From assembly GCA_964016885.1 (NCBI GenBank), contig OZ024742.1:8308001-8372000 (forward strand): a DNA stretch of 64,000 nt, in the 5' to 3' direction. Source of the DNA: Eledone cirrhosa. Taxonomy: Eukaryota. The position numbers and the translations under genes were made by a program. Positions within the stretch are counted from its first letter, which is position 1; each line of letters opens with the position of its first letter. Below, in pieces: positions 29,113-57,200 of the stretch. The notes below the pieces were generated by a model. It saw only the letters and a program-made list of their open reading frames with translations, was not told where the DNA came from and did not search any database.

Positions 29113-29206
29113 ACCCCTTGATAAGCTCGGCTATTTAAATACCAGAATAAATTTTCATTCAGTCCAGAATTAGCCGTCGAAACGGCTCGAGCTCAGCCGT
29201 CGGGGT
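29113..29206 (+). ncRNA. Hammerhead ribozyme with U3-A8 core at the element 3' end
   Basis: ACCCC-TTGATAA-G.CGGCTA...TAGCCG.C-GAAAC-GGCT..AGCC-GTC-GGGGT. Stems I, II and III are all present. Predicted cleavage after C29201. Confidence 0.8.
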
Positions 29207-29241
29207 CTTACTTGTTCCTATTACCCACTATAGAGTGGGTA

Positions 29242-30192: not shown

Positions 30193-31045
30193 ATATATAT
30201 ATATATAAGTGTTCCTATATCTATATTCCTATCTATTCATATTCCTAATAGTTTATGTATATTCAAAAGGGCTCCCCTCACCCCTCTCCCTTCCTTACCA
30301 AATCCTATTCTTCACACATCATCTATCTCTAATTCTGCTTCTTTCGTTTTACCAAACTTTCAACTTTCCTTTGACATTACTCAATACACTTTAATTGTCT
30401 TCATACCAACATCCTAAACCTTATTATGCACTAATTATGATAACTATAATAATCCTTTATTATAGTTATAATAATATAGTTTTACTCTTCTTACATCCCT
30501 ACTTATTAATATTGATATTATTATCATTATTATAATATATTTTTTAGCAGTATCATTTTATTTAATTAGTCCAATTGTAGTATATGCTTCAATACACACC
30601 TCTCTATAGTTCACCTGCTTTATTCCTATTAACCTTAAATCAAAGGCCAGACATCCTAGACTAAGCCACTGCCAAACCTCCACAATTCACTGAAGCCTTA
30701 ACTACCACTCACCTCGCCTCCTCCTCCACATCCTTGCACTTCTTCTTCTTCTTCTTCTAATTCTTCTTCTTTGCTTTCTTTTTCCACTTTTTTCTACTTT
30801 ATTCCTGATTTCGACCCCCCTTCCTCTATCTATCTATCTATCTTGATAGAGTAAGACACGCTTCGCATCGGCTCCGCTATTCCATCGGGATTTACCCTTA
30901 CTATTGTAAGTATCGGATAAAATTTTTAGTGCAACACATTTGGAACACTAACCCCTGTTATTTAGGGAAACATTTTTGCATTTACCCCCTTTTTAGGGGG
31001 TAAAATAAATATCTATTTTTGCCGAAAAATTTCTTTCTTGGCAGC

Positions 31046-32881
31046 ATGGCGGAAAAGATGGCAGACATGTCTGCCATTAGCTCTGCCACGCCCCCCAAGT
31101 CTGAAGAACAAAAAATAATTACAACAAAATTAGACATTGAAACAAACAAACAAAATGAAAAAACAAATGTTAAGGAAAATGAGCAAACAGAAAACAAACA
31201 AACAGAAAATAATACAAATAACGACAGGGCAACTTTCGCCCAGAAAACAAAGCAATCCATTACATACACACCAATTGACCTAACTGCCGCCAGAGAAAAA
31301 CTGGCCGAAGCAAAGAAACATATTGTTTTGGGAGAGAACGGAATGTTTTCCATTAACTCCCCCCCAGAATTCAAGAAAGCCAGAGAAGAAAACACAGTTA
31401 TATACAGAACTATACTAAACCAGTCAAGAAAGCCAGCACAGCCCAGCCAAATGGAAATAGAGTTAGTCCTAAAAGACTATATGAAGAATATTCTCTTCAT
31501 ACGAAAGGACCGACTCTATGGCAGCATTTCGGTCCTAACAAGAGACAAAGAAACGGCGGTTCAGCTTTCCCTAAGCCCACTCTCGTCGACAACATATAGC
31601 TTCTATCCCTCCTACATGGGTAGAAGAACACAGAGGGTAAAAGTAAAAACAATGCTGCCCACAATGGACTTCTGGTGGGCTATTGCTGGCTTCATTGATA
31701 TGGGCGAAGACACTATGCTGTCAATGGGGAAGGCAACTGGAGATGCGTTCCTGGGAATGGGCCTCGACATACTAGTCCAAATGAGGCCCGAAAGAATAGC
31801 ACAAATCCCGGATCGCATCTGGCTGGATGACCTTACCCCAATAGACATAATTGTAGAGGGGAGAAGACCAGCATGCTATTTATGCATGGAAAGGGGACAC
31901 GTTAAGGCTAACTGCCCGAAACGTATCCCCCAAAAAGGACTATTGCCCACACCCACCACAAACAGTACACCAGCACCACCCACCTCCAAAAATACACTAA
32001 TACCACACACAGCAAACAAAATACAGACACCACCAACCACAAACACAACACAAACATCACCACCACCAGCACCAAACACAAGCACGACACAAAAATCACC
32101 ACCACCAACCACAACACAAACATCACCACCACCATTACCAACCACAAGCACGACACAAACATTACCACCACCACCACCACAAAACCCATTCCAAACAAAT
32201 AATAAAAAAAACAGTAACAAATCTACCCCTCCCGCAAAAAAAAAACAACCACACAACACGTCCCTCCCACCTAGCGCTGAAGAGTTTCCCCCAACTTCTG
32301 AAGAAGAAGGAGGAGAAGCCTTCAGACAAGTTAAAAGAAAAAAAAGAAAACACACACCCAGCACACCACAAATAACCCACACACAAACACCAACTCCAAT
32401 CAAAAACACCCCACCCTCAACAAACAAAAATAAATCTGCGCCTCCCCTCTCCGAAACATTGACAGCATCACAAAAAAAGACGTTGCAATACACATATATA
32501 AATAAAGAAAACAAAAAACTGGTTAAATTAATAAACAATAACCCTATGGTGCAGACCGAAGGGCCAAACTTTATCTCAACAGAGAACTTCACCCATTTAA
32601 AAATGATAAAGGTCCCTCTGGACCTTTATCGTTCCTTAAAAGAACAATTTAGACGGGACGTGAGCCCCCCCTGTTTAAAACCGTTGAATCGCGTCCTCTT
32701 GAAAGATTTCCCCATAACCGCCCCTCTCCCTGACACAACTCCAAATACCCCAACCCCACCACACACGTGTACCCCCACACCACCACAAAACATCCCTCCA
32801 CCCAACACACCTGATGCCATGGAAATTACGCAACCCGGAGAGGTAAGTGCTTTTCTTTCTTCACTTTCAACACCAAAATAG
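31046..32881 (+). CDS. Tx1-like ORF1 (gag-like, CCHC knuckle), copy 1, intact
   Basis: CYLCMERGHVKANC zinc knuckle, P/T-rich region, basic KRKKRK motif. First ATG at 31046. Confidence 0.85.
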   Translation: MAEKMADMSAISSATPPKSEEQKIITTKLDIETNKQNEKTNVKENEQTENKQTENNTNNDRATFAQKTKQSITYTPIDLTAAREKLAEAKKHIVLGENGMFSINSPPEFKKAREENTVIYRTILNQSRKPAQPSQMEIELVLKDYMKNILFIRKDRLYGSISVLTRDKETAVQLSLSPLSSTTYSFYPSYMGRRTQRVKVKTMLPTMDFWWAIAGFIDMGEDTMLSMGKATGDAFLGMGLDILVQMRPERIAQIPDRIWLDDLTPIDIIVEGRRPACYLCMERGHVKANCPKRIPQKGLLPTPTTNSTPAPPTSKNTLIPHTANKIQTPPTTNTTQTSPPPAPNTSTTQKSPPPTTTQTSPPPLPTTSTTQTLPPPPPQNPFQTNNKKNSNKSTPPAKKKQPHNTSLPPSAEEFPPTSEEEGGEAFRQVKRKKRKHTPSTPQITHTQTPTPIKNTPPSTNKNKSAPPLSETLTASQKKTLQYTYINKENKKLVKLINNNPMVQTEGPNFISTENFTHLKMIKVPLDLYRSLKEQFRRDVSPPCLKPLNRVLLKDFPITAPLPDTTPNTPTPPHTCTPTPPQNIPPPNTPDAMEITQPGEVSAFLSSLSTPK

Positions 32882-32886
32882 ATCAA

Positions 32887-35800
32887 TTGAGAGTTGGCTG
32901 TTTGAATGCGCGTGGCCTGAGCTCAGCTTGGAAGCAAGCAAAGCTTCTAAGTGACCTCAGGTCACAAAGTATAGATGTGATGGTTGTTTGCGAGAGTCGG
33001 ATCAGCAGCGTGAGACAGCTGGCGCCCGCCTTCGATGACTTTGAGATGCACGCATCTCTCTGTCAACCCGGAGGCGGGGGGGGAGTTGCCGTACTGCTGG
33101 ATAAACGTCTAACTCTCGACGTACAGATTGTTCACTCGGACCCGGGGGGTCGATTACTGGTGCTGGACGTCGGAGGTGGTGAAGGCGGGGCTTTCAGACT
33201 GGTCGGTCTTTATGCTCCCTTCGGGGCGGAGAGAGCCGACTTCTTCCAACGTCTGGAGACTTTTCTAGGAACGTCGCGTTCCCTGCTTTTAGTGGGGGAC
33301 TGGAATGGAATCCTAGATGCGCGTTGGGACTATGCAGGGGCATGTCCCGATAGAGGGGGGTGTAGCAGCCTCAAGGGGTTACTCGATCGATTCGACCTGG
33401 TCGATAGATTTCGACTAGATTGTCCAACTGCGCCAACCTGGACCTGGGCAAACCGCAGTGGACAATCTAGATCGTACCTAGATAGGTTTTTGGTTAGGAG
33501 TAAGGATAGGGACGTATTTAGTTGTCCAGAACTGATCATGGTTGGCTATTCAGATCACAAATTAGTGACCTGCGTGGTCAACCTTGATAGAACGCATAGA
33601 CAGGGTCCCGGTTACTGGAAGATGAACTTGTCCTTACCGACAAAGAAAGATTACAGAAACCGGATTAGTAGCTTAGTTAAGATGCGGTTGACGGGAGCGA
33701 TCGTCAACAGTAGGTGGTGGATATCTCTAAAGAGAGAGATTAGAGTAAGTTCGATAGGTTACAGTAAGGAACTAGCGGCGAATAGAAATAGGAGGGAAAG
33801 GGAGTTAACAGATAAACTAGAAGAGGCGATTAGGAGCGGAGACGTAGCCAGAGTGTTAGCGACGAGAACGGCATTGAGCCAGTTCTTTGACACGAAGCAC
33901 GAAGGCTGCGTTGTCCGAAGTAAAATACGTGCTTTAGGAAACGAGGGGACCAAAGCTGTTAGCTGGGCCCGCGTGACAGAAGCCAAGAGTGGGATTAAAT
34001 CCACCATTCGGTCTTTGCGAGACCAGGATGGACGGGTGATCCTTGAACCTGAGCGAATGTGCGAGACCTTTCAAAGGCACTTTGCTCGACTGTTCGGAGG
34101 TGGCGGGGGGCCGGACGGGGATGTGGACTTCGGTCCATACCTCGACGGTCTACCGCGTCTTTCGAGCGGCGAAGCGGATTCCTGCGAAGGGCCAATCACA
34201 GCCACTGAAATCGGGGAAGCGCTCAGCCAATGCAGCAGACGCAAATCCCCGGGTCTCGATGGTCTACCATACGAACTTTATTTAGCTATGCCGGTCTTGT
34301 TCTCCGAACTCCTCGAGGCTGTCTATTGCAACTGGCAACAGAACGGGAGAATTCCCTGTTCTGTGACCAAGGGCGTGGTCACGCTAGTGAGGAAGGACGA
34401 GAGCAAGGGGGACGACTTAAGTAACTTTAGGCCCATAACTCTGCTGAATGCAGAGTTACAGATTTTGGCCAAGGTGTTGGCGAAGAGGTTGGCGCTTGTG
34501 GTGGGTGGTTTGGTGGGAGACGCGCAGACATGCGCTATCCCGTCCAGGTCCATTCACGACAACCTCCACCTCATGCGATACATCATAGAGAGGGTTGGCT
34601 ACGAACCCGGCTTTGGTGGGGCCCTGATCAACTTGGATCAATCTAAGGCGTTCGATAGGGTCGACCATGGTTACCTGGATGCGGTGCTAGCGGCGGCGGG
34701 CTTCGGACCCGTTTTCAGGGGCTGGATTTCTGCCATGCACAGTGGCAACATCTACTCTAGGATTAAAGTAAACGGCTACCTCTCGGAGCCGTTTCAAATC
34801 ACCCGATCCATCAGACAGGGGTGCCCCCTCTCCTCCCTTCTGTACGTATTGACTCTCGAGCCACTGCTGCGGAAGTTGGAGTTGCTGCGGGGCATACCCC
34901 TGGAACCGGGATTGCACAAAGCGGTCTCGGCCTATGCCGACGACGTAACAGTAATGGTGGCGGACGCCTCGGAAATCGGGGCGATCGCCACCCTACTGGA
35001 GGAATACGAAAGGCTGACGGGGGCTAAGCTGAACCAGGACAAGTCAGTCGGTTTGCAACTCGGAACGTGGAGGGGCAAACCGATGCCGTTAGACGGTGTC
35101 GTCGGGCGGTGGACGGAGGGCCCGGTGAAGCTACTCGGGGTCTGGTTCGGACCGGACCTCCAGGTGGAGAAGAATTGGGGCGAGGTGACGAGCAGGGTGT
35201 TTGCGCTGACCCAGAAGTGGGCCAAGTGCAAACTATCACTGAAAGGTCGGGCGGAGGTGACGAACGCTTACATAGCGTCCGTCATCTACTACCGCCTGAC
35301 CGTCGTGCCTTGCCCCAAGGAAAAGCTCACCATCATGGAACGCATGCTCTTCCAGTTCCTCTGGAAGAAGCGGCCTCCCATGGTGAGGAGATCCATCTGC
35401 TGCCAGCACCCTTCGAAAGGAGGGCTGGGTATGCCGTGGCTGTTGATGCGTAGGCACGCATTGAGGCTACGGCATCTACAGGTATTCCTCAACGGTCAGC
35501 CGGTGTGGGCCCCGTTTGTGAGGCGAGCCTTCCCACAGCTCGTCTCGCTCACCGAACTGCAATCCTGGGTGAAGCAAAGACCGAGAAAACTGGGCAACTG
35601 GCACACCGAGTGTGCCCAGGCGCTCACGGCTATCTGGCAAGCGGACCCGACTATCAGTGGAGAATCCACCTCGACATTCTATAGAGGGTTGGTGGCTAGC
35701 AAGGGCGACGACACCCTTGGAGAGTCGCTAGGCATGGAGGAGGACGAACTGGCCAGCCTGTTCGGTAGAACTTTCGGCCCGGGACCCATGGACAACTTCC

Positions 35801-36315
35801 AGAGGTCCCTAGCCTGGCAGTGTTACCGAGGGGCTCTGCCCGTTCGAGAAAAGCTCTACAGACACGGGCGCCCGGGCAGGGATCCCGCGAAAAAGATCTG
35901 CCCCAGATGCGTGCGCGACGAGGAAACCGTTGCGCATGCACTGGTACACTGCCCGGGCGTTATCGATCTGTGGGGCTACGTCGAACGACTGCTGTCGCGT
36001 GTGGCGCCGATTCGATTAACCGCCGAGTCTGTGGTGAACATCAAGCCGCCTCCTCCCTTCAGAAATGAAGCAGAGGCGGTCTTTCTGTGCGTAATAGCCA
36101 TGATGAAAGAGGTTGTGTGGTGGACGCGCCTGAAAGGTCTGAGGTCGGGTGACTTTCTCTCCGGCCATCACCTGGTTTACTTCTTCTGATACCACTTCGG
36201 AAGAAGGATCAGGATGTAGAGAGAAGTGCTTGGCCCCAGACAGTTCTATGAAAGGTGGGTGAAAGAAGCGAGAATGGCCCGTGTAAATGGGCCTTCTCTC
36301 TACATTGTTCTGTAG
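32887..36315 (+). pseudogene. Tx1-like ORF2 (APE endonuclease, RT, Cys/His domain), copy 1; two stops near the C-terminus (36187, 36217)
   Basis: APE: LNARG, GGVAVL, LYAP, GDWN, LDRFL, SDH. RT: KSPGLDG, FRPITLLN, LDQSKAFDRVDH, IRQGCPLS, AYADD. C-terminal CPRC..ETVAHALVHC. The true end is defined by copies 2 and 3. Confidence 0.9.
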
Positions 36316-36546
36316 GTGAAGAAGTGAAGAAGAAAGGGGGAGCGCCTCCTCTCTGGGCTTCCCCCGCGAAAAGAGTTGCACACTTTTCGGGGGTATGTGC
36401 AATCCCCAACACGCCCCCTCCCTTTTGAGGACTTTTTATTGTTATATTATTATTGTTATTCCTTTTTTCTTTACTCGATTTATGTAAACTCCCCCACTGT
36501 GTAAATGTCCCCTTCTTTTGTGCCCTCGTGGCAAATAAATAGAAAT

Positions 36547-36579
<33 letters not shown>

Positions 36580-36581
<2 letters not shown>

Positions 36582-39500
36582 GATAGAGTAAGACACGCTT
36601 CGCATCGGCTCCGCTATTCCATCGGGATTTACCCTTACTATTGTAAGTACAGGATAAATTTTTTAGTGCAACACATTTGGAACACTAACCCCTGTTATTT
36701 AGGGAAACATTTTTGCATTTACCCCCTTTTTAGGGGGTAAAATAAATATCTATTTTTGCCGAAAAATTTCTTTCTTGGCAGCATGGCGGAAAAGATGGCA
36801 GACATGTCTGCCATTAGCTCTGCCACGCCCCCCAAGTCTGAAGAACAAAAAATAATTACAACAAAATTAGACATTGAAACAAACAAACAAAATGAAAAAA
36901 CAAATGTTAAGGAAAATGAGCAAACAGAAAACAAACAAACAGAAAATAATACAAATAACGACAGGGCAACTTTCGCCCAGAAAACAAAACAATCCATTAC
37001 ATACACACCAATTGACCTAACTGCCGCCAGAGAAAAACTGGCCGAAGCAAAGAAACACATTGTTTTGGGGGAGAACGGAATGTTCTCCATTAACTCCCCC
37101 CCCCCCCCCCAGAATTCAAGAAAGCCAGAGCAGAAAACACAGTTCTCTACAGAACTATACTGAACCAGACAAGAAAGCCAGCACAGCCCAGCCAAATGGA
37201 AATAGAGTTAGTCCTAAAAGACTATATGAAGAATATTCTCTTCATACGAAAGGACCGACTCTATGGCAGCATTTCGGTCCTAACAAGAGACAAAGAAACG
37301 GCGGAGAAGCTTTCCCTAAGCCCACTCTCGTCGACAACATATAGCTTCTATCCCTCCTACATTGGTAGAAGAACACAGAGAGTAAAAGTAAAAACAATGC
37401 TGCCCACAATGGACTTCTGGTGGGCTATTGCTGGCTTCATTGATATGGGCGAAGACACAATGCTGTCAATGGGGAAGGCAACTGGAGATGCGTTCCTGGG
37501 AATGGGCCTCGACATACTAGTCCAAATGAGGCCCGAAAGAATAGCACAAATCCCGGATCGCATCTGGCTGGATGACCTTACCCCAATAGACATAATTGTA
37601 GAGGGGAGAAGACCAGCATGCTATTTATGCATGGAAAGGGGACACGTTAAGGCTAACTGCCCGAAACGTATCCCCCAAAAAGGACGATTGCCCACACCCA
37701 TCACAAACAGTACACCAACACCACCCACCTCCAAAAATACACTAATACCACACACAGCAAACAAAATACAGACACCACCAACCACAAACACAACACAAAC
37801 ATCACCACCACCAGCACCAAACACAAGCACGACACAAAAATCACCACCACCAACCACAACACAAACACCACCATCACCAACCACAAGCACGACACAAACA
37901 TTACCACCACCACCACAAAACCCATTCCAAACAAATAATAAAAAAAACAGTAACAAATCTACCCCTCCCGCAAAAAAAAAACAACCACACAACACGTCCC
38001 TCCCACCTAGCGCTGAAGAGTTTCCCCCAACTTCTGAAGAAGAAGGAGGAGAAGCCTTCAGACAAGTTAAAAGAAAAAAAAGAAAACACACACCCAGCAC
38101 ACCACAAATAACCCACACACAAACACCAACTCCAATCAAAAACACCCCACCCTCAACAAACAAAAATAAATCTGCGCCTCCCCTCTCCGAAACATTGACA
38201 GCATCACAAAAAAAGACGTTGCAATACACATATATAAATAAAGAAAACAAAAAACTGGTTAAATTAATAAACAATAACCCTATGGTGCAGACCGAAGGGC
38301 CAAACTTTATCTCAACAGAGAACTTCACCCATTTAAAAATGATAAAGGTCCCTCTGGACCTTTATCGTTCCTTAAAAGAACAATTTAGACGGGACGTGAG
38401 CCCCCCCTGTTTAAAACCGTTGAATCGCGTCCTCTTGAAAGATTTCCCCATAACCGCCCCTCTCCCTGACACAACTCCAAATACCCCAACCCCACCACAC
38501 ACGTGTACCCCCACACCACCACAAAACATCCCTCCACCTAACACACCTGATGCCATGGAAATTACGCAACCCGGAGAGGTAAGTGCTTTTCTTTCTTCAC
38601 TTTCAACACCAAAATAGATCAATTGAGAGTTGGCTGTTTGAACGCGCGTGGCCTGGGCTCAGCTTGGAAGCAAGCAAAGCTTCTAAGTGACCTCAGGTCA
38701 CAAAGTATAGATGTGATGGTTGTTTGCGAGAGTCGGATCAGCAGCGTGAGACAGCTGGCGCCCGCCTTCGATGACTTTGAGATGCACGCATCTCTCTGTC
38801 AACCCGGAGGCGGGGGGGGGGGGGGGAGGGGGGGAGTTGCCGTACTGCTGGATAAACGTCTGACTCTCGACGTACAGATTGTTCACTCGGACCCGGGGGG
38901 TCGATTACTGGTGCTGGACGTCGGAGGCGGTGAAGGCGGGGCTTTCAGACTGGTCGGTCTTTATGCTCCCTTCGGGGCGGAAAGAGCCGACTTCTTCCAG
39001 CGTCTGGAGACTTTTCTAGGAACGTCGCGTTCCCTGCTTTTAGTGGGGGACTGGAAAGGAATCCTAGATGCGCGTTGGGACTATGCAGGGGCATGTCCCG
39101 ATAGAGGGGGGTGTAGCAGCCTCAAGGGGTTACTCGATCGATTCGACCTGGTCGATAGATTTCGACTAGATTGTCCAACTGCGCCAACCTGGACCTGGGC
39201 AAACCGCAGTGGACAATCTAGATCGTACCTAGATAGGTTTTTGGTTAGGAGTAAGGATAGGGACGTATTTAGTTGTCCAGAACTGATCATGGTTGGCTAT
39301 TCAGATCACAAATTAGTGACCTGCGTGGTCAACCTTGATAGAACGCATAGACAGGGTCCCGGTTACTGGAAGATGAACTTGTCCTTACCGACAAAGAAAG
39401 ATTACAGAAACCGGATTAGTAGCTTACTTAAGATGCGGTTGACGGGAGCGATCGTCAACAGTAGGTGGTGGATATCTCTAAAGAGAGAGATTAGAGTAAG

Positions 39501-42298
39501 TTCGATAGGTTACAGTAAGGAACTAGCGGCGAATAGAAATAGGAGGGAAAGGGAGTTAACAGATAAACTAGAAGAGGCGATTAGGAGCGGAGACGTAGCC
39601 AGAGTGTTAGCGACGAGAACGGCGTGGAGCCAGTTCTTTGACGCGAAGCACGAAGGCTGCGTTGTCCGAAGTAAAATACGTGCTTTAGGAAACGAGGGGA
39701 CCAAAGCTGTTAGCTGGGCCCGCGTGACAGAAGCCAAGAGTGGGATTAAATCCACCATTCGGTCTTTGCGAGACCAGGATGGACGGGTGATCCTTGAACC
39801 TGAGCGAATGTGCGAGACCTTTCAAAGGCACTTTGCTCGACTGTTCGGAGGTGGCGGGGGGCCGGACGGGGATGTGGACTTCGGTCCATACCTCGACGGT
39901 CTACCGCGTCTTTCGAGCGGCGAAGCGGAGTGCTGCGAAAGGCCAATCACAGCCACTGAAATCGGGGAAGCGCTCAGCCAATGCAGCAGACGCAAATCCC
40001 CGGGTCTCGATGGTCTACCATACGAACTTTATTTAGCTATGCCGGTCTTGTTCTCCGAACTCCTCGAGGCTGTCTATTGCAACTGGCAACAGAACGGGTG
40101 AATTCCCTGTTCTGTGACCAAGGGCGTGGTCACGCTAGTGAGGAAGGACGAGAGCAAGGGGGACGACTTAAGTAACTTTAGGCCCATAACTCTGCTGAAT
40201 GCAGAGTTACAGATTTTGGCCAAGGTGTTGGCGAAGAGGTTGGCGCTTGTGGTGGGTGGTTTGGTGGGAGACGCGCAGACATGCGCTATCCCGTCCAGGT
40301 CCATTCACGACAACCTCCACCTCATGCGATACATCATAGAGAGGGTTGGCTACGAACCCGGCTTTGGTGGGGCCCTGATCAACTTGGATCAATCTAAGGC
40401 GTTCGATAGGGTCGACCATGGTTACCTGGATGCGGTGCTAGCGGCGGCGGGCTTCGGACCCGTTTTCAGGGGCTGGATTTCTGCCATGCACAGTGGCAAC
40501 ATCTACTCTAGGATTAAAGTAAACGGCTACCTCTCGGAGCCGTTTCAAATCACCCGATCCATCAGACAGGGGTGCCCCCTCTCCTCCCTTCTGTACGTAT
40601 TGACTCTCGAGCCACTGCTGCGGAAGTTGGAGTTGCTGCGGGGCATACCCCTGGAACCGGGATTGCACAAAGCGGTCTCGGCCTATGCCGACGACGTAAC
40701 AGTAATGGTGGCGGACGCCTCGGAAATCGGGGCGATCGCCACCCTACTGGAGGAATACGAAAGGCTGACGGAGGCTAAGCTGAACCAGGACAAGTCAGTC
40801 GGTTTGCAACTCGGAACGTGGAGGGGCAAACCGATGCCGTTAGACGGTGTCGTCGGGCGGTGGACGGAGGGCCCGGTGAAGCTGCTCGGGGTCTGGTTCG
40901 GACCGGACCTCCAGGTGGAGAAGAATTGGGGCGAGGTGACGAGCAGGGTGTTTGCGCTGACCCAGAAGTGGGCCAAGTGCAAACTATCACTGAAAGGTCG
41001 GGCGGAGGTGACGAACGCTTACATAGCGTCCGTCATCTACTACCGCCTGACCGTCGTGCCTTGCCCCAAGGAAAAGCTCACCATCATGGAACGCATGCTC
41101 TTCCAGTTCCTCTGGAAGAAGCGGCCTCCCATGGTGATGAGATCCATCTGCTGCCAGCACCCTTCGAAAGGAGGGCTGGGTATGCCGTGGCTGTTGATGC
41201 GTAGGCACGCATTGAGGCTACGGCATCTACAGGTATTCCTCAACGGTCAGCCGGTGTGGGCCCCGTTTGTGAGGCGAGCCTTCCCACAGCTCGTCTCGCT
41301 CACCGAACTGCAATCCTGGGTGAAGCAAAGACCGAGAAAACTGGGCAACTGGCACACCGAGTGTGCCCAGGCGCTCACGGCTATCTGGCAAGCGGACCCG
41401 ACTGTCAGTGGAGAATCCACCTCGACATTCTATAGAGGGTTGGTGGCTAGCAGGGGCGACGACACCCTTGGAGAGTCGCTAGGCATGGAGGAGGACGAAC
41501 TGGCCAGCCTGTTCGGTAGAACTTTCGGCCCGGGACCCATGGACAACTTCCAGAGGTCTCTAGTCTGGCAGTGTTACCGGGGGGCTCTGCCCGTTCGAGA
41601 AAAGCTCTACAGACACGGGCGCCCGGGCAGGGATCCCGCGAAAAAGATCTGTCCCAGATGCGTGCGCGACGAGGAAACCGTTGCGCATGCACTGGTACAC
41701 TGCCCGGGCGTTGCCGATCTGTGGGGCTACGTCGAACGACTGCTGTCGCGTGTGGCGCCGATTCGATTAACCGCCGAGTCTGTGGTGAACATCAAGCCGC
41801 CTCCTCCCTTCAGAAATGAAGCAGAGGCGGTCTTTCTGTGCGTAATAGCCATGATGAAAGAGGTTGTGTGGTGGACGCGCCTGAAAGGTCTGAGGTCGGG
41901 TGACTTTCTCTCCGGCCATCACCTGGTTTACTTCTTCCGATACCACTTCGGAAGAAGGATCAGGATGGAGAGAGAAGTGCTTGGTCCCAGACAGTTTTAT
42001 GAAAGGTGGGTGAAAGAAGCGAGAATGGCCCGTGTAAATGGGCCTTCTCTCTACATTGTTCTGTAGGTGAAGAAGTGAAGAGGAAAGGGGGAGCGCCTCC
42101 TCTCTGGGCTTCCCCCGCGAAAAGAGTTGCACACTTTTCGGGGGTATGTGCAATCCCCAACACGCCCCCTCCCTTTTGAGGACTTTTTATTGTTATATTA
42201 TTATTGTTATTCCTTTTTTCTTTACTCGATTTATGTAAACTCCCCCACTGTGTAAATGTCCCCTTCTTTTGTGCCCTCGTGGCAAATAAATAGAAATT
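36580..42298 (+). mobile_element. Tx1-like element, copy 2, full length
   Basis: Near-identical to copy 1. ORF1 (36783-38617) is frameshifted in the poly-C at ~37095-37110. ORF2 (38623-42066) has a TGA at 40099 and GDWN>GDWK. Followed by (TATC)3. Confidence 0.93.
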
Positions 42299-42310
42299 TA
42301 TCTATCTATC

Positions 42311-45300
42311 TTGATAGAGTAAGACACGCTTCACATCGGCTCCGCTATTCCATCGGGATTTACCCTTACTATTGTAAGTACCGGATAAATTTTTCAGTGC
42401 AACACATTTGGAACACTAACCCCTGTTTTTTAGGGAAACATTTTTGCATTTACCCCCTTTTTAGGGGGTAAAATAAATATCTATTTTTGCCGAAAAATTT
42501 CTTTCTTGGCAGCATGGCGGAAAAGATGGCAGACATGTCTGCCATTAGCTCTGCCACGCCCCCCAAGTCTGAAGAACAAAAAATACTTACAACAAAATTA
42601 GACAATGAAACAAACAAAGAAAAGGAAAAAACAAATGTTAAGGAAAATGAGCAAACAGAAAACAAACAAACAGAAAATAATACAAATAACGACAGGGCAA
42701 CTTTCGCCCAGAAAACAAAACAATCCATTACATACACACCAATTGACCTAACAGCCGCCAGAGAAAAACTGGCCGAAGCAAAGAAACACATTGTTTTGGG
42801 GGAGAACGGAATGTTTTCCATTAACTCCCCCCCCCCCAGAATTCAAGAAAGCCAGAGCAGAAAACACAGTTCTCTACAGAACTATACTGAACCAGACAAG
42901 AAAGCCAGCACAGCCCAGCCAAATGGAAATAGAGTTAGTCCTAAAAGACTATATGAAGAATATTCTCTTCATACGAAAGGACCGACTCTATGGCAGCATT
43001 TCGGTCCTAACAAGAGACAGGGAAACGGCGGAGAAGCTTTCCCTAAGCCCACTCTCATCGACAACATATAGCTTCTATCCCTCCTACATGGGTAGAAGAA
43101 CACAGAGAGTAAAAGTAAAAACAATGCTGCCCACAATGGACTTCTGGTGGGCTATTGCTGGCTTCATTGATATGGGCGAAGACACAATGCTGTCAATGAG
43201 GAAGGCAACTGGAGATGCGTTCCTGGGAATGGGCCTCGACATACTAGTCCAAATGAGGGCCGAAAGAATAGCACAAATCCCGGATCGCATCTGGCTGGAT
43301 GACCTTACCCCAATAGACATAATTGTAGAGGGGAGAAGACCAGCATGCTATTTATGCATGGAAAGGGGACACGTTAATGCTAACTGCCCGAAACGTATCC
43401 CCCAAAAAGGACTATTGCCCACACCCACCACAAACAGTACACCAACACCACCCACCTCCAAAAATACACTAATACCACACACAGCAAACAAAATACAGAC
43501 ACCACCAACCACAAACACAACACAAACATTACCACCACCAGCACCAAACACAAGCACGACACAAAAATCACCACCACCAACCACAACACAAACATCACCA
43601 CCACCATCACCAACCACAAGCACGACACAAACATTACCACCACCACCACAAAACCCATTCCAAACAAATAATAAAAAAAACAGTAACAAATCTACCCCTC
43701 CCGCAAAAAAAAAAACAACCACACAACACGTCCCTCCCACCTAGCGCTGAAGAGTTTCCCCCAACTTCTGAAGAAGAAGGAGGAGAAGCCTTCAGACAAG
43801 TTAAAAGAAAAAAAAGAAAACACACACCCAGCACACCACAAATAACCCACACACAAACACCAACTCCAATCAAAAACACCCCACCCTCAACAAACAAAAA
43901 TAAATCTGCGCCTCCCCTCTCCGAAACATTGACAGCATCACAAAAAAAGACGTTGCAATACACATATATAAATAAAGAAAACAAAAAACTGGTTAAATTA
44001 ATAAACAATAACCCTATGGTGCAGACCGAAGGGCCAAACTTTATCTCAACAGAGAACTTCACCCATTTAAAAATGATAAAGGTCCCTCTGGACCTTTATC
44101 GTTCCTTAAAAGAACAATTTAGACGGGACGTGAGCCCCCCCCTGTTTAAAACCGTTGAATCGCGTCCTCTTGAAAGATTTCCCCATAACCGCCCCTCTCC
44201 CTGACACAACTCCAAATACCCCAACCCCACCACACACGTGTACCCCCACACCACCACAAAACATCCCTCCACCCAACACACCTGATACCATGGAAATTAC
44301 GCAACCCGGAGAGGTAAGTGCTTTTCTTTCTTCACTTTCAACACCAAAATAGATCAATTGAGAGTTGGCTGTTTGAACGCGCGTGGCCTGGGCTCAGCTT
44401 GGAAGCAAGCAAAGCTTCTAAGTGACCTCAGGTCACAAAGTATAGATGTGATGGTTGTTTGCGAGAGTCGGATCAGCAGCGTGAGACAGCTGGCGCCCGC
44501 CTTCGATGACTTTGAGATGCACGCATCTCTCTGTCAACCCGGAGGCGGGGGGGGGGAGTTGCCGTACTGCTGGATAAACGTCTGACTCTCGACGTACAGA
44601 TTGTTCACTCGGACCCGGGGGGTCGATTACTGGTGCTGGACGTCGGAGGCGGTGAAGGCGGGGCTTTCAGACTGGTCGGTCTTTATGCTCCCTTCGGGGC
44701 GGAAAGAGCCGACTTCTTCCAGCGTCTGGAGACTTTTCTAGGACCGTCGCGTTCCCTGCTTTTAGTGGGGGACTGGAATGGAATCCTAGATGCGCGTTGG
44801 GACTATGCAGGGGCATGTCCCGATAGAGGGGGGTGTAGCAGCCTCAAGGGGTTACTCGATCGATTCGACCTGGTCGATAGATTTCGACTAGATTGTCCAA
44901 CTGCGCCAACCTGGACCTGGGCAAACCGTAGTGGACAATCTAGATCGTACCTAGATAGGTTTTTGGTTAGGAGTAAGGATAGGGACGTATTTAGTTGTCC
45001 AGAACTGATCATGGTTGGCTATTCAGATCACAAATTAGTGACCTGCGTGGTAAACCTTGATAGAACGCATAGACAGGGTCCCGGTTACTGGAAGATGAAC
45101 TTGTCCTTACCGACAAAGAAAGATTACAGAAACCGGATTAGTAGCTTAGTTAAGATGCGGTTGACGGGAGCGATCGTCAACAGTAGGTGGTGGATATCTC
45201 TAAAGAGAGAGATTAGAGTAAGTTCGATAGGTTACAGTAAGGAACTAGCGGCGAATAGAAATAGGAAGGAAAGGGAGTTAACAGATAAACTAGAAGAGGC

Positions 45301-48020
45301 GATTAGGAGCGGAGACGTAGCCAGAGTGTTAGCGACGAGAACGGCGTTGAGCCAGTTCTTTGACGCGAAGCACGAAGGCTGCGTTGTCCGAAGTAAAATA
45401 CGTGCTTTAGGAAACGAGGGGACCAAAGCTGTTATCTGGGCCCGCGTGACAGAAGCCAAGAGTGGGATTAAATCCACCATTCGGTCTTTGCGAGACCAGG
45501 ATGGACGGGTGATCCTTGAACCTGAGCGAATGTGCGAGACCTTTCAAAGGCACTTTGCTCGACTGTTCGGAGGTGGCGGGGGGCCGGACGGGGATGTGGA
45601 CTTCGGTCCATACCTCGACGGTCTACCGCGTCTTTCGAGCGGCGAAGCGGAGTGCTGCGAAAGGCCAATCACAGCCACTGAAATCGGGGAAGCGCTCAGC
45701 CAATGCAGCAGACGCAAATCCCCGGGTCTCGATGGTCTACCATACGAACTTTATTTAGCTATGCCGGTCTTGTTCTCCGAACTCCTCGAGGCTGTCTATT
45801 GCAACTGGCAACAGAACGGGTGAATTCCCTGTTCTGTGACCAAGGGCGTGGTCACGCTAGTGAGGAAGGACGAGAGCAAGGGGGACGACTTAAGTAACTT
45901 TAGGCCCATAACTCTGCTGAATGCAGAGTTACAGATTTTGGCCAAGGTGTTGGCGAAGAGGTTGGCGCTTGTGGTGGGTGGTTTGGTGGGAGACGCGCAG
46001 ACATGCGCTATCCCGTCCAGGTCCATTCACGACAACCTCCACCTCATGCGATACATCATAGAGAGGGTTGGCTACGAACCCGGCTTTGGTGGGGCCCTGA
46101 TCAACTTGGATCAATCTAAGGCGTTCGATAGGGTCGACCATGGTTACCTGGATGCGGTGCTAGCGGCGGCGGGCATCGGACCCGTTTTCAGGGGCTGGAT
46201 TTCTGCCATGCACAGTGGCAACATCTACTCTAGGATTAAAGTAAACGGCTACCTCTCGGAGCCGTTTCAAATCACCCGATCCATCAGACAGGGGTGCCCC
46301 CTCTCCTCCCTTCTGTACGTATTGACTCTCGAGCCACTGCTGCGGAAGTTGGAGTTGCTGCGGGGCATACCCCTGGAACCGGGATTGCACAAAGCGGTCT
46401 CGGCCTATGCCGACGACGTAACAGTAATGGTGGCGGACGCCTCGGAAATCGGGGCGATCGCCACCCTGCTGGAGGAATACGAAAGGCTGACGGGGGCTAA
46501 GCTGAACCAGGACAAGTCAGTCGGTTTGCAACTCGGAACGTGGAGGTGCAAACCGATGCCGTTAAACGGTGTCGTCGGGCGGTGGACGGAGGGCCCGGTG
46601 AAGCTGCTCGGGGTCTGGTTCGGACCGGACCTCCAGGTGGAGAAGAATTGGGGCGAGGTGACGAGCAGGGTGTTTGCGCTGACCCAGAAGTGGGCCAAGT
46701 GCAAACTATCACTGAAAGGTCGGGCGGAGGTGACGAACGCTTACATAGCGTCCGTCATCTACTACCGCCTGACCGTCGTGCCTTGCCCCAAGGAAAAGCT
46801 CACCATCATGGAACGCATGCTCTTCCAGTTCCTCTGGAAGAAGCGGCCTCCCATGGTGATGAGATCCATCTGCTGCCAGCACCCTTCGAAAGGAGGGCTG
46901 GGTATGCCGTGGCTGTTGATGCGTAGGCACGCATTGAGGCTACGGCATCTACAGGTATTCCTCAACGGTCAGCCGGTGTGGGCCCCGTTTGTGAGGCGAG
47001 CCTTCCCACAGCTCGTCTCGCTCACCGAACTGCAATCCTGGGTGAAGCAAAGACCGAGAAAACTGGGCAACTGGCACACCGAGTGTGCCCAGGCGCTCAC
47101 GGCTATCTGGCAAGCGGACCCGACTGTCAGTGGAGAATCCACCTCGACATTCTATAGAGGGATGGTGGCTAGCAGGGGCGACGACACCCTTGGAGAGTCG
47201 CTAGGCATGGAGGAGGACGAACTGGCCAGCCTGTTCGGTAGAACTTTCGGCCCGGGACCCATGGACAACTTCCAGAGGTCCCTAGCCTGGCAGTGTTACC
47301 GGGGGGCTCTGCCCGTTTGAGAAAAGCTCTACAGACACGGGCGCCCGGGCAGGGATCCCGTGAAAAAGATCTGTCCCAGATGCGTGGGCGACGAGGAAAC
47401 CGTTGCGCATGCACTGGTACACTGCCCGGGCGTTGCCGATCTGTGGGGCTACGTCGAACGACTGCTGTCGCGTGTGGCGCCGGTTCGATTAACCGCCGAG
47501 TCTGTGGTGAACATCAAGCCGCCTCCTCCCTTCAGAAATGAAGCAGAGGCGGTCTTTCTGTGCGTAATAGCCATGATGAAAGAGGTTGTGTGGTGGACGC
47601 GCCTGAAAGGTCTGAGGTCGGGTGACTTTCTCTCCGGCCATCACCTGGTTTACTTCTTCCGATACCACTTCGGAAGAAGGATCAGGATGGAGAGAGAAGT
47701 GCTTGGTCCCAGACAGTTTTATGAAAGGTGGGTGAAAGAAGCGAGAATGGCCCGTGTAAATGGGCCTTCTCTCTACATTGTTCTGTAGGTGAAGAAGTGA
47801 AGAGGAAAGGGGGAGCGCCTCCTCTCTGGGCTTCCCCCGCGAAAAGAGTTGCACACTTTTCGGGGGTATGTGCAATCCCCAACACGCCCCCTCCCTTTTG
47901 AGGACTTTTTATTGTTATATTATTATTGTTATTCCTTTTTTCTTTACTCGATTTATGTAAACTCCCCCACTGTGTAAATGTCCCCTCCTTTTGTGCCCTC
48001 GTGGCAAATAAATAGAAATT
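42311..48020 (+). mobile_element. Tx1-like element, copy 3, full length
   Basis: ORF1 (42514-44352) and ORF2 (44358-47788) have homopolymer frameshifts and stops at 45821 and 47318. Followed by TATC-TGTC and (TC)n/(TATC)n. Confidence 0.93.
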
Positions 48021-48026
48021 TATCTG

Positions 48027-48083
<57 letters not shown>

Positions 48084-51292: not shown

Positions 51293-54200
51293 GGTGTATG
51301 GTGTAGTGTGGTGTAGTAGTATGGTGTAGTGTGGTGTAGTAGTGTGGTGTAGTGTGGTGTAGTATGGTGTAGTGTGGTGTAGTAGTGTGGTGTAGTGTGG
51401 TGTAGTGTGGTGTAGTAGTGTGGTGTAGTATAGTGTAGTGTGGTGTCGTACGGTGTAATGTGGTGTAGTAGTGTGGTGTAGTATGGTGTAGTGTGTTGTA
51501 GTAGTGTGGTGTAGTATAGTGTAGTGTGGTGTCGTACGGTGTAGTAGTGTGGTGTAGTATGATGTAGTGTGGTGTAGTACGGTGTAGTGTGGTGTAGTAT
51601 GGTGTAGTAGTGTGGTGTAGTGTGTTGTAGTAGTATGGTGTAGTATGGTGTAGTGTGGTGTAGTACGGTGTAGTGTGGTGCAGTAGTGTGGTGTAGTGTG
51701 GTGTAGTAGTGCGGTGTAGTATGGTGTAGTGTGGTGTAGTAGTATGGTGTAGTATGGTGTAGTGTGGTGTAGTACGGTGTAGTGTGGTGTAGTATAGTGT
51801 AGTGTGGTGTAGTAGTGTGGTGTAGTATGGTGTAGTGTGGTGTAGTGTGGTGTAGTAGTATGGTGTAGTATGGTGTAGAGTGGTGTAGTAGTGTGGTGTA
51901 GTATGGTGTAGTGTGGTGTAGTACGGTGTAGTGTGGTGTAGTAGTGTGGTGTAGTGTGGTGTAGTGTGGTGTAGTAGTGTGGTGTAGTATGGTGTAGTGA
52001 GGTGTAGTAGTGTGGTGTAGTATGGTGTAGTGTGGTGTAGTACTGTGGGGTAGTATGGTGTAGTGTGGTGTAGTAGTATGGTGTAGTGTGGTGTAGTAGT
52101 ATGGTGTAGTGTGGTGTAGTAGTGTGGTGTAGTATGGTGTAGTGTGGTGTAGTAGTGTGGTGTAGTATGGTGTAGTGTGGTGTAGTACTGTGGTGTAGTA
52201 TGGTGTAGTAGTGTGGTGTAGTGTGGTGTAGTGTGGTGTAGTAGTGTGGTGTAGTATGGTGTAGTGTGGTGTCGTAGTGTGGTGTAGTATGGTGTAGTGT
52301 GGTGTAGTACTGTGGTGTAGTATGGTGTAGTAGTGTGGTGTTGTGTGGTGTAGTGTGGTGTAGTAGTGTGGTGTAGTATGGTGTATGTGGTGTAGTAGTG
52401 TGGTAGAGTATGGTGTAGTGTGGTGTAGTACGGTGTAGTGTGGTGTAGTAGTGTGGTGTAGTATGGTGTAGTAGTGTGGTGTAGTATGGTGTAGTGTGGT
52501 GTAGTATGGTGTAGTGTGGTGTAGTATGGTGTAGTAGTGTGGTGTAGTATGGTGTAGTGTGGTGTAGTATGGTGTAGTGTGGTGTAGTAGTGTGGTGTAG
52601 TGTGGTGTAGTAGTGTGGTGTAGTACGGTGTAGTGTGGTGTAGTATGGTGTAGTAGTGTGGTATAGTATGGTGTAGTGTGGTGTAGTATGGTGTAGTAGT
52701 GTGGTATAGTATGGTGTAGTGTGGTGTAGTATGGTGTAGTAGTGGTAGTGTAGTATGGTGTAATGTGGTGTAATAGTATGGTGTAGTGTGGTGTAGTAGT
52801 GTGGTGTAGTGTGGTGTAGTAGTGTGGTGTAGTATAGTGTAGTGTGGTGTCGTACGGTGTAGTGTGGTGTAGTAGTGTGGTGTAGTATGATGTAGTGTGG
52901 TGTAGTACGGTGTAGTGTGGTGTAGTATGGTGTAGTAGTGTGGTGTAGTGTGTTGTAGTAGTATGGTGTAGTATGGTGTAGTGTGGTGTAGTACGGTGTA
53001 GTGTGGTGTAGTAGTGTGGTGTAGTGTGGTGTAGTAGTGCGGTGTAGTATGGTGTAGTGTGGTGTAGTAGTGTGGTGTAGTATGGTGTAGTGTGGTGTAG
53101 TACGGTGTAGTGTGGTGTAGTATAGTGTAGTGTGGTGTAGTAGTGTGGTGTAGTATGGTGTAGTGTGGTGTAGTGTGGTGTAGTAGTGTGGTGTAGTATG
53201 GTGTAGAGTGGTGTAGTAGTGTGGTGTAGTATGGTGTAGTGTGGTGTAGTACGGTGTAGTGTGGTGTAGTAGTGTGGTGTAGTGTGGTGTAGTGTGGTGT
53301 AGTAGTGTGGTGTAGTGTGGTGTAGTAGTGTGGTGTAGTATGGTGTAGTGTGGTGTAGTACTGTGGGGTAGTATGGTGTAGTGTGGTGTAGTAGTATGGT
53401 GTAGTGTGGTGTAGTAGTATGGTGTAGTGTGGTGTAGTAGTGTGGTGTAGTATGGTGTAGTGTGGTGTAGTAGTGTGGTGTAGGATGGTGTAGTGTGGTG
53501 TAGTACTGTGGTGTAGTATGGTGTAGTAGTGTGGTGTAGTGTGGTGTAGTGTGGTGTAGTAGTGTGGTGTAGTATGGTGTAGTGTGGTGTCGTAGTGTGG
53601 TGTAGTATGGTGTAGTGTGGTGTAGTACTGTGGTGTAGTATGGTGTAGTAGTGTGGTGTTGTGTGGTGTAGTGTGGTGTAGTAGTGTGGTGTAGTATGGT
53701 GTATGTGGTGTAGTAGTGTGGTAGAGTATGGTGTAGTGTGGTGTAGTACGGTGTAGTGTGGTGTAGTAGTGTGGTGTAGTATGGTGTAGTAGTGTGGTGT
53801 AGTATGGTGTAGTGTGGTGTAGTATGGTGTAGTGTGGTGTAGTATGGTGTAGTAGTGTGGTGTAGTATGGTGTAGTGTGGTGTAGTATGGTGTAGTGTGG
53901 TGTAGTAGTGTGGTGTAGTGTGGTGTAGTAGTGTGGTGTAGTACGGTGTAGTGTGGTGTAGTATGGTGTAGTAGTGTGGTATAGTATGGTGTAGTGTGGT
54001 GTAGTATGGTGTAGTAGTGTGGTATAGTATGGTGTAGTGTGGTGTAGTATGGTGTAGTAGTGGTAGTGTAGTATGGTGTAATGTGGTGTAATAGTATGGT
54101 GTAGTGTGGTGTAGTAGTGTGGTGTAGTGTGGTGTAGTAGTGTGGTGTAGTATGGTGTATGTGGTGTAGTAGTGTGGTAGAGTATGGTGTAGTGTGGTGT

Positions 54201-57200
54201 AGTACGGTGTAGTGTGGTGTAGTAGTGTGGTGTAGTATGGTGTAGTAGTGTGGTGTAGTATGGTGTAGTGTGGTGTAGTATGGTGTACTAGTGTGGTGTA
54301 GTATGGTGTAGTAGTGTGGTGTAGTATGGTGTAGTGTGGTGTAGTATGGTGTAGTGTGGTGTAGTAGTGTGGTGTAGTATGGTGTAGTGTGGTGTAGTAT
54401 GGTGTAGTGTAGTGTAGTAGTGTGGTGTAGTGTGGTGTAGTAGTGTGGTGTAGTATGGTGTAGTGTGGTGTAGTAGTGTAGTGTGGTGTAGTAGTGTAGT
54501 GTGGTGTAGTAGTGTGGTGTAGAATGGTGTAGTGTGGTGTAGTATGGTGTAGTGTGGTGTAGTGTGGTGTAGTAGTGTGGTGTAGTATGGTGTAGTGTGG
54601 TGTAGTATGGTGTAGTGTGGTGTAGTATGGTGTAGTGTGGTGTAGTAGTGTGGTGTAGTGTGGTGTAGTATGGTGTAGTGTGGTGTAGTAGTGTGGTGTA
54701 GAATGGTGTAGTGTGGTGTAGTATGGTGTAGTGTGGTGTAGTGTGGTGTAGTAGTGTGGAGTAGTATGGTGTAGTGTGGTGTAGTATGGTGTAGTGTGGT
54801 GTAGTAGTGTGGTGTAGTGTGGTGTAGTATGGTGTAGTGTGGTGTAGTAGTGTGGTGTAGAATGGTGTAGTGTGGTGTAGTATGGTGTAGTGTGGTGTAG
54901 TAGTGTGGTGGAGTAGTGTGGTGTAGTAGTGTGGTGTAGTAGTGTGGTGTAGTATGGTGTTGTGTGGTGTCGTAGTGTGGTGTAGAATGGTGTAGTGTGG
55001 TGTAGTATGGTGTAGTGTGGTGTAGTAGGGTGGTGTAGTATGGTGTAGTGTGGTGTAGTAGTGTGGTGTGGTATGGTGTAGTGTGGTGTAGTAGTGTGGT
55101 GTGGTATGGTGTAGTGTGGTGTAGTAGTGTGGTGTAGTATGGTGTAGTGTGGTGTAGTAGTGTGGTGTGGTATGGTGTAGTGTGGTGTAGTAGTGTGGTG
55201 TAGTATGGTGTAGAGTGGTGTAGTAGTGTGGTGTAGTATGGTGTAGTGTGGTGTAGTAGTGCGGTGTAGTATGGTGTAGTGTGGTGTAGTAAGGTGTAGT
55301 GTGGTGTAGTAGTGTGGTGTAGTATGGTGTAGTGTGGTGTAGTAGTGTGGTGTAGTATGCTGTAGTGTGGTGTAGTAGTGTGGTGTAGTATGGTGGAGTG
55401 TGGTGTAGTATGGTGTAGTGTGGTGTAGTAGTGCGGTGTAGTATGGTGTAGTGTGGTGTAGTATGGTGTAGTGTGGTGTAGTAGTGCGGTGTAGTATGGT
55501 GTAGTGTGGTGTAGTAGTGCGGTGTAGTATGGTGTAGTGTGGTGTAGTATGGTGTAGTGTGGTGTAGTAGTGTGGTGTAGTATGGTGTAGTGTGGTGTAG
55601 TAGTGTGGTGTAGTATGGTGTAGTGTGGTGTAGTAGTGCGGTGTAGTATGGTGTAGTGTGGTGTAGTATGGTGTAGTGCGCTGTAGTATGGTGTAGCGTG
55701 GTGTAGTATGGTGTAGTGTGGTGTAGTAGTATGGTGTAGTGTGGTGTAGTATGGTGTAGTGTGGTGTAGTAGTGTGGTGTAGTATGGTGTAGTGTGGTGT
55801 AGTAGTGTGGTGTAGTATGGTGTAGTGTGGTGTAGTAGTGTGGTGTAGTATGGTGTAGTAGTGCGGTGTAGTATGGTGTAGTGTGGTGTAGTATGGTGTA
55901 GTGTGGTGTAGTATAGTGTAGTGTGGTGTAGTAGTGTGGTGTAGTATGGTGTAGTGTGGTGTAGTATGGTGTAGTGTGGTCTAGTGTAGTGTGGTGTAGT
56001 ATGTTGTAGTGTGGTGTAGTGTGGTGTAGTAGTGTGGTGTGGTATGGTGTAGTGTGGTGTAGTAGTGTGGTGTAGTATGGTGTAGTAGTGTGGTGTAGTG
56101 GTGTAGTATGGTGTAGTAGTGTGGTGTAGTAGTGTGGTGTAGTATGGTGTAGTAGTGTGGTGTAGTAGTGGTGTAGTATGGTGTAATGTGGTGTAGTATG
56201 GTGTAGTGTGGTGTAGTGTGGTGTAGTAGTGTGGTGTAGTATGGTGTAGTGTGGTGTAGTGTGGTGTAGTAGTGTGGTGTAGTATGGTGTAGTGTGGTGT
56301 AGTATGGTGTAGTGTGGTGTAGTATGGTGTAGTGTGGTGTAGTAGTGTGGTGTAGTATGGTGTAGTAGTGCGGTGTAGTATGGTGTAGTGTGGTGTAGTA
56401 GTGTGGTACGGTATGGTGTAGTGTGGTTTAGTAGTGTGGTGTAGTATGGTGCAGTGTGGTGTAGTATGGTGTAGTGAGGTGTAGTAGTGTGGTATAGTAT
56501 GGTGTAGTGTGGTGTAGTAGTGTGGTGTAGTATGGTGTAGTGTGGTGTAGTAGTGTGGTGTAGTATGGTGTAGTGTGGTGTAGAATGGTGTAGTGTGGTG
56601 TAATATGGTGTAGTGTGGTGTAGTAGTGTGGTGTAGTATGGTGTAGTGTGGTGTAGTAGTGTGGTGTAGTAGTGGTGTGTAGTATGGTGTAGTACGGTGT
56701 AGTGTGGTGTAATAGTGTGGTGTAGTATAGTGTAGTAGTGTGGTGTAGTGTGGTGTAGTAGGGTGGTGTAGTAGTGTGGTGTAGTAGTGTGGTGTAGTGT
56801 GGTGTAGTAGTGTGGTGTAGTGTGGTGTAGTAGTGTGGTGTAGTAGTGTGGTGTAGTAGTGTGGTGTAGTGTGGTGTAGTAGTGTGGTGTAGTGTGGTGT
56901 AGTAGTGTGGTGTAGTAGTGTGGTGTAGTGTGGTGTAGTAGTGTGGTGTTGTATGGTGTAGTGTGGTGTAGTAGTATGGTGTAGTGTGGTGTAGTAGTGT
57001 GGTGTAGTAGTGTGGTGTTGTATGGTGTAGTGTGGTGTAGTAGTGTGGTGTAGTAGTGTGGTGTAGTGTGGTGTCGTAGTGTGGTGTAGTAGTGTGGTGT
57101 TGTATGGTGTAGTGTGGTGTAGTAGTGTGGTGTAGTAGTGTGGTGTAGTGTGGTGTAGTAGTGTGGTGTAGTAGTGTGGTGTAGTGGTGTGGTGTAGTAG

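Follow-up and report, generated by a model that had tools for sequence, protein, structure and literature searches.

We analyzed a stretch of 64,000 nucleotides from Eledone cirrhosa (assembly GCA_964016885.1, contig OZ024742.1, positions 8,308,001 to 8,372,000 of the forward strand), hereafter called the window, which carries a head-to-tail array of a long interspersed element (LINE) associated with (TATC)n microsatellites. The array is made up of three copies on the same strand, A (5705 bp), B (5719 bp), and C (5710 bp), with two open reading frames (ORF1 and ORF2) (Table 1). The 5′ start, TTGATAGAGTAAG, and the 3′ terminus, AATAGAAATT, are alike in all three. The copies are joined solely by (TATC)n: (TATC)4 precedes A, (TATC)8 separates A from B, (TATC)3 separates B from C, and one TATC follows C. 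A search for poly(A) at the ends of A, B, and C found none. The sequence confirms in this respect the initial annotation, which had reported three same-orientation copies of about 5.7 kb with identical ends, TATC joints, and no poly(A). No further 5′ or 3′ end of this type occurs in the window beyond the three of each that belong to A, B, and C. Over about 5700 sites, A and B are separated by 54 substitutions, A and C by 73, and B and C by 43, to which homopolymer indels are added. No copy of the three is completely intact: ORF2 of A stops about 42 codons prematurely, ORF1 is frameshifted in B and in C, and these two have an ORF2 stop in common. Across copies, a C run in ORF1 (31359 region) is 6–15 long and a G run in ORF2 (33077 region) is 5–17 long; many frameshifts result, by slippage or read error.

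Table 1. Features of the array and its downstream neighborhood (positions in the window).
Feature	Positions	Strand	Remarks
(TATC)4 target tract upstream of A	30827..30842	+	
Copy A, full length	30843..36547	+	5′ part of the youngest sub-lineage; 3′ part with older-lineage and private states, likely mosaic
5′ untranslated region (5′-UTR) of A, 203 nt	30843..31045	+	Fold stronger than in shuffled sequences (z -3.0); no match to an Rfam family at gathering score
ORF1 of A, 611 aa	31046..32881	+	One CCHC knuckle (weak Pfam zf-CCHC, below cut-off); Pro/Thr-rich C-terminal half
ORF2 of A	32878..36189	+	Apurinic/apyrimidinic endonuclease (APE), reverse transcriptase (RT), C-terminal zinc motif; early private stop
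(TATC)8 spacer A-B	36548..36579	+	
Copy B, full length, intermediate sub-lineage	36580..42298	+	ORF1 frameshift; ORF2 stop 40099-40101 common only to C
(TATC)3 spacer B-C	42299..42310	+	
Copy C, full length, older sub-lineage	42311..48020	+	Frameshifts in both ORFs; ORF2 stops
Single TATC after C	48021..48024	+	Continues as TC-rich simple sequence
GT-rich satellite, 10/23/33-bp periods	51299..64000	+	About 14 kb more past the window, then stops; no link to the array seen

Occurrence in the genome was counted from exact matches to the 5′ 20-mer and to the 3′ 21-mer in the 3.0-Gb assembly; such exact-motif counts overlook older, diverged copies. The 20-mer occurs 568 times, with TATCTT directly before it in 557 cases, and the 21-mer occurs 566 times, with TATC directly after it in 557. 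The family amounts to about 570 copies, with 98% of both ends against TATC, in a fixed register and without poly(A). Among the fetched full-length copies, TATC stands at the upstream edge in 125 out of 125 and opens the downstream flank in 123 out of 125. As background, 20 evenly spaced sample places, 200 kb in total, gave 7 tracts of at least three TATC units. The share of flanks lying in one microsatellite, for which a published criterion asks more than 20% (PMC4494074), is 98% here at both ends. A (TATC)n/(GATA)n-targeting family had been proposed in the initial annotation; the tabulated flanks of the genomic copies, about 98% of the ~570 5′ ends and 3′ ends lying at TATC, uphold this, and non-TATC flanks do not predominate.

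Target DNA persists on either side of each copy. At four sites, broken repeat units are present on both sides and thereby reveal duplications, of 16 bp in L070 and of 20 bp in L080, L189, and L100; in L100, three additional TATC units lie at the 5′ side, between the duplication and the element. Because broken units are copied on both sides, the tract is the target and not merely a tail. An alternative would be that (TATC)n belongs to the element itself, as a head and tail that the RNA carries or the RT adds, and that insertion at loosely TC/TA-rich sites creates the tracts. The additional units of L100 agree with it, and so do the at least 10,493 tracts that come after 3′ ends of this group of families and the heads of one relative, which open with the target-like ATCTCT even where the tract is poor. 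We nevertheless hold it to be quite improbable: the broken units on both sides of L070, L080, and L189 mean that the tract predates insertion, the downstream tract can be one unit before unrelated DNA, and TATC tracts are also found upstream of truncated copies and of truncated relatives.

Full length was assessed on contig C1 and on contig C2 up to 123 Mb, a sample with 91 3′ ends. The exact 5′ end is paired with 78 of them. The remaining 13 were fetched and correspond to seven full-length copies with a motif mismatch, three truncated copies, and three chimeras with relatives. The full-length share is 85/91 (~93%; 95% confidence interval 0.86–0.98), a figure valid only for the young family detected by exact motifs, because exact-motif counts miss older, diverged copies. 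Precise 5′ ends had been pointed out as unusual for L1-clade elements, and this high share bears the remark out; among recent human and chimpanzee L1 insertions, 16.2% are full length (PMC2912911). Of 139 copies, 44 have a neighbor within five substitutions, and both ORFs are open in 13 out of 92. Judged from these sequences, the LINE family is young and appears to have expanded recently. In the chimeras L123, L126, and L132, a related family supplies the 5′ part and the present family the 3′ part, which suggests template switching or inter-family recombination.

At least three related families start after TATC or TCTC and end before TATC, and ORF2 is ~84% identical in two of them. Across the genome, three TATC units come after 10,493 3′ ends of this type. 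For one relative, 529 heads were counted in the genome; in the first 43 Mb of C1, nine of its heads compare with 17 tails of its type, so that it is at most about half full length in this small interval and truncates more often, with the reservation that this tail type may be common to another family. Three related families (L103:1906, L109:1921, and L112:2873) have differing 5′-UTRs and a common GC-rich hairpin before ORF1, and two of the three carry a GATRGA word able to pair with an upstream TCTATC. In L107:4859-7649 and L128:4251-6102, truncated relatives recur in tandem with the same start points and the same spacers, a sign of either duplication at the DNA level or an error in assembly. 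An old, short 3′ fragment of a related LINE, with ~74% DNA identity to the array copies, lies on the minus strand of the window at 14841-15085.

The two proteins place the element among retrotransposons devoid of long terminal repeats (non-LTR). In ORF2, Pfam identifies Exo_endo_phos, RVT_1, and, below cut-off, zf-RVT, and the best solved relative is human L1 ORF2p (PDB 8uw3, E 1e-49), R2 being matched at E 1e-22. ORF2 has the N-terminal APE, the RT, and the C-terminal zinc motif of APE-type elements of the L1 superclade. The element also has two ORFs, no LTRs, and duplications at four full-length and two truncated sites. ORF1 has one CCHC motif (Pfam E 0.018, below cut-off), and its atlas matches are zf-CCHC clusters at 0.92; Transposase_22 was not detected in ORF1 with Pfam, and a homolog search with ORF1 found none. 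A CCHC ORF1 of such a type has been called consistent with Tx1 (PMC5203782). This ORF1, with CCHC and without Transposase_22, has that character, which is not exclusive to Tx1. Among named sequences, the RT is nearest to homologs from Argonauta hians (68%) and Acanthosepion pharaonis (53%), and no named Tx1 sequence stands among the matches of the homolog searches and of the clusters. Tx1 membership is likely on the basis of the ORF layout and of the CCHC ORF1.

The start of ORF2 is peculiar. Its first in-frame ATG falls after the first endonuclease motif, a motif that aligns with the start of the L1 endonuclease. Two relatives have an ATG at the equivalent position, just before this motif. 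In the family itself, 121 of 123 matched copies have at this place an ATA that overlaps the ORF1 stop. It is known that L1 tolerates the loss of the ORF2 AUG. Because the family expanded recently despite the ATA, translation of ORF2 probably relies on reinitiation at a non-AUG codon or on a -1 frameshift. Translation of ORF2 coupled to the ORF1 stop is described for SART1, by stop-start coupling, and for L1, by reinitiation (PMC5972666); the arrangement would be the same here, except that the overlapping start is ATA and not ATG. Window positions 32843-32881, at the ORF1/ORF2 junction, also hold a GT...AG stretch that has a pyrimidine tract, and its GGTA(A/G)GT word, a possible splice donor, is kept in relatives.

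The 5′ junction is made in one register. Full-length heads show the same repeat phase in 109 out of 114 cases, whereas the truncated junctions of this and related families (n = 39) fall in all four phases (4/10/8/17), in a set where some loci are duplicates and some matches have low identity and uncertain boundaries. The duplications could be read in two truncated copies, both out of register: L124 with 18 bp and L127 with 12 bp and 4 bp of microhomology. We favor the idea that the RNA would carry a short target-like leader able to pair with the upstream tract. A serious rival, which we regard as a real possibility, dispenses with any target-derived leader and explains the precise 5′ end by a precise internal promoter start and a sequence-specific second nick after TATCT. 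WGATAR is the consensus of GATA factors, and this word, a possible promoter element, is present in three of four heads. The rival also accounts for the T that directly follows TATC in all four family heads observed and for the duplications visible in full-length copies, which are multiples of 4 bp; a precedent is Hebe, described as beginning at an initiator motif, without truncation (PMC2861651). It is less at ease with the truncated copies, since the duplications of L124 and L127 end out of register and truncated junctions fall across all phases. An R2-like self-cleaving ribozyme at the 5′ end, with an HDV-like or hammerhead fold, was also considered: the 5′-UTR of A is structured (z -3.0 vs. 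shuffles), no ribozyme core was recognised, and the 5′ region has no Rfam match at gathering score. In three of four families, the upstream TCTATC is predicted to fold back onto a GATAGA-like head word once two or three upstream units are added to the sequence. This is a lead only: a GATA-factor site accounts for the word equally well, and four related families are too few for covariation.

Arrays are not restricted to the window. At least 36 head-to-tail junctions within the family, 34 of them with pure (TATC)n spacers, were found on 11 contigs, a lower bound since the exact pattern overlooks longer spacers; the tract census predicts three to six. Some arrays hold four copies or more. In an unbiased set of 92 copies, 39 (42%) have, no more than 130 nt upstream, a 3′ end of the same (six cases) or a related family. 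The expectation is at most ~20% (10,493 such ends for at least 53,610 tract starts; p 5e-7), although the tract census is rough and post-insertion and selection or regional bias could inflate this excess. In all eight trimers examined, rare states (in at most one outside copy) are common to members, and in four trimers the 5′ part of the middle copy is like the downstream copy and its 3′ part like the upstream copy. These hybrid middle copies (C3:309.88, C3:228.52, C7:72.97, and, more weakly, C2:33.30) look like the signature of unequal crossover in a dimer. Three of five dimers have no common private state, and re-insertion accounts well for dimers. As for the window array, the 5′ parts belong to a young (A), an intermediate (B), and an older sub-lineage (C), and older-lineage states are found near the 3′ end of A. 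B and C have in common two substitutions that are absent from 135-136 other aligned copies. One is the ORF2 stop (0/135 other aligned family copies), and two exclusive states are common to just 14 of 5460 non-array pairs. A defective source lineage for this stop was ruled out, its three other genomic matches being in relatives at ~82% identity. Because of the mix of sub-lineages, the substitutions private to B and C, and the older 3′ states of A, the window array would derive from several insertions followed by local exchange.

Three other accounts of the array have to be weighed. According to the initial annotation, each insertion leaves a fresh target in which the next one lands. The part of this proposal that stands is stacking on earlier copies (39/92). 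Re-insertion alone, or an RT jumping from RNA to RNA, with no DNA recombination, seems unlikely, even though it is favored by the dimers devoid of a common private state, by the three sub-lineages of the window copies, and by nine junctions with a single TATC. Indeed, the rare states common to members of all eight trimers, the four hybrid middle copies, and the repetition of whole units, truncated relative included, go against it; this model is already largely refuted for trimers and does not account for the substitutions private to B and C. An artificial duplication made during assembly is hardly credible. In its favor, variable homopolymer lengths might contain read errors, and members of some other arrays are near-identical (2–4 differences). 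The contigs aligned to the left flank of the array stop at the repeat junction and display neither a filled nor an empty site. However, the nearest relatives of A, of B, and of C each lie outside the array, and because 43–73 sites differ between the window copies and many of their sub-lineage alleles recur in copies on other contigs, comparison of the sequences suggests that the array is real and makes assembly duplication unlikely. The idea of a telomere-like or satellite-linked role, as for HeT-A/TART or TRAS/SART, has very little in its favor beyond the head-to-tail order in one direction and the satellite 3.3 kb off. The likeness to telomeric TRAS/SART/HeT-A arrays drawn in the initial annotation does not hold: the site is interstitial and lies 8.3 Mb into a contig of 379 Mb, the window was found to contain no (TTAGGG)n, arrays are spread over 11 contigs and mostly interstitial, and none of the three copies is intact. 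The giant satellite reported about 3 kb away is indeed present, from 3.3 kb downstream of the array, but it is a finite block of ~27 kb. Another short-period satellite, not TTAGGG, is found at the start of contig C3 (L248:1-300). Besides, a contig from run X5, labelled as another organism, corresponds to window 30825-31090, that is, to the TATC tract and the first 250 bases of the element, with four differences.

We therefore propose, with a probability of about 0.8, that the family is a recent two-ORF LINE, likely of the Tx1 type, whose copies, full length with few exceptions, are almost confined to (TATC)n, whose endonuclease likely nicks (GATA)n/(TATC)n, and whose arrays likely arise by landing beside an earlier copy, then by unequal crossover. 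The fixed register of both ends at TATC (98%), without poly(A), would be the first trace of the process. By analogy with L1-type target-primed reverse transcription, the APE would nick the GATA strand and the 3′ end of the RNA would be copied from the nick. Duplications of 16–20 bp, seen at a few imperfect sites and shorter or absent in most informative ones, would follow. Transcription may start in or at the tract, giving an RNA with the short target-like leader TATCT, and the finished cDNA could then pair in register with the upstream tract, hence an invariant 5′ junction. Target DNA is left on both sides, where another copy could land, and 42% of copies stand right behind a 3′ end of the same or a related family. 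Unequal crossover or gene conversion would finally reshape trimers, in keeping with their allele patterns; in the window, 5′ parts from three sub-lineages would have been brought together and ORF2 sequence later exchanged between B and C. As to expression, ORF2 would be produced without an AUG, via reinitiation at the ATA overlapping the ORF1 stop or via a -1 frameshift.

Several points weigh against this proposal. To the limits already given for the 93% figure, for the truncated junctions, for the stacking excess, and for the more frequent truncation of a relative, one has to add that the 3′ flanks of 36 copies leave the TATC phase within 16 nt and that a broken unit is present upstream in only six rows, one of which is an artefact of end definition and another a duplicate, which leaves four independent duplication sites. 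Because the duplication is readable at just these four sites among 36, it is often short or replaced. A single TATC is found in 9 of 36 head-to-tail spacers, and because many 5′ junctions hold just one TATC, any leader is usually of at most one unit and a fixed second nick is possible. The position of the nick and the RNA leader are inferred from sequence. Finally, the window trimer has no clean crossover switch and only two exclusive common sites.

A bolder version may be put forward only tentatively, and we find it doubtful. The family would have nearly solved the problem of 5′ truncation: the RNA would start in its own TATC target and the cDNA would pair with the tract, giving a precise 5.7-kb copy in more than 90% of events, with ORF2 made without an AUG. 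Together with its sister families, it would seed a tenth to a fifth of the TATC tracts of the genome, which serve as landing pads.

Another element lies in the window, within a (TA)n tract at 24829-29221. It is 4.4 kb long, is bounded by inverted terminal repeats of 844 bp (98% identity), and has two frames, of 552 and 173 aa. By their motifs, these frames resemble a Penelope-like RT and a GIY-YIG nuclease, but Pfam gave no significant match.

The array as such is the expected outcome of site-specific insertion and not a new system. R1 and other site-specific LINEs form tandem arrays. In R1-type arrays and in the telomeric TRAS/SART and Tx1-1_ACar (PMC10088271), the target is regenerated at each junction and head-to-tail stacks result, as here. 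The (TATC)n LINE differs from them in that its target is a microsatellite dispersed over tens of thousands of tracts and in that its arrays are short and interstitial (2–4 or more copies). The closest parallels in target choice are Kibi, Koshi, and the crocodilian (TTCC)n/(TTTC)n Tx1 families, which are described as APE-type two-ORF elements inserted in pyrimidine-rich microsatellites, like the (TATC)n LINE; the Kibi/Koshi group targets (TC)n, (TTC)n, (TTCC)n, and (TTTC)n in vertebrates, whereas the target is (TATC)n here, a repeat absent from the target lists consulted (PMC4494074, PMC3812793). The (TATC)n LINE is likely a Tx1-type microsatellite-targeting LINE that works like Kibi/Koshi. Human LINE-1 has the same ORF2 layout (APE, RT, zinc motif) and similar duplication lengths, and its full-length copies are reported to carry extra 5′ bases initiated upstream (PMC2912911). 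It differs by its poly(A), its weak TTTT/AA preference, its lower full-length share, and its Transposase_22-type ORF1 (PMC2912911). Hebe of Adineta vaga is likewise a non-LTR element whose copies are described as free of 5′ truncation, but it belongs to the jockey clade, with 15 subtelomeric copies, poly(A), and no sequence target, compared to ~570 site-specific copies without poly(A) here (PMC2861651). A 2026 annotation of Octopus vulgaris reports 421 recent, length-filtered L1-Tx1 insertions, targets being unmentioned in the main-text passages searched (PMC13282606). Our literature search for a (TATC)n- or (GATA)n-specific LINE found none; Repbase, which was outside its scope, may already list the family. 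The family stands out by its (TATC)n target, its full-length share of 93%, its fixed register, and its ATA start.

The cause of 5′ truncation in most LINE insertions and the way in which the 5′ junction is made are open questions. Hundreds of young, in-register copies, 93% of them full length, beside more-truncating relatives with ~84% identical ORF2 constitute a natural comparison in this respect. The family also offers a natural case of a non-AUG ORF2. Finally, its (TATC)n target extends the known set of microsatellite-specific LINEs, and its arrays give an example of retrotransposon arrays that site-specific insertion and unequal crossover would build away from telomeres.

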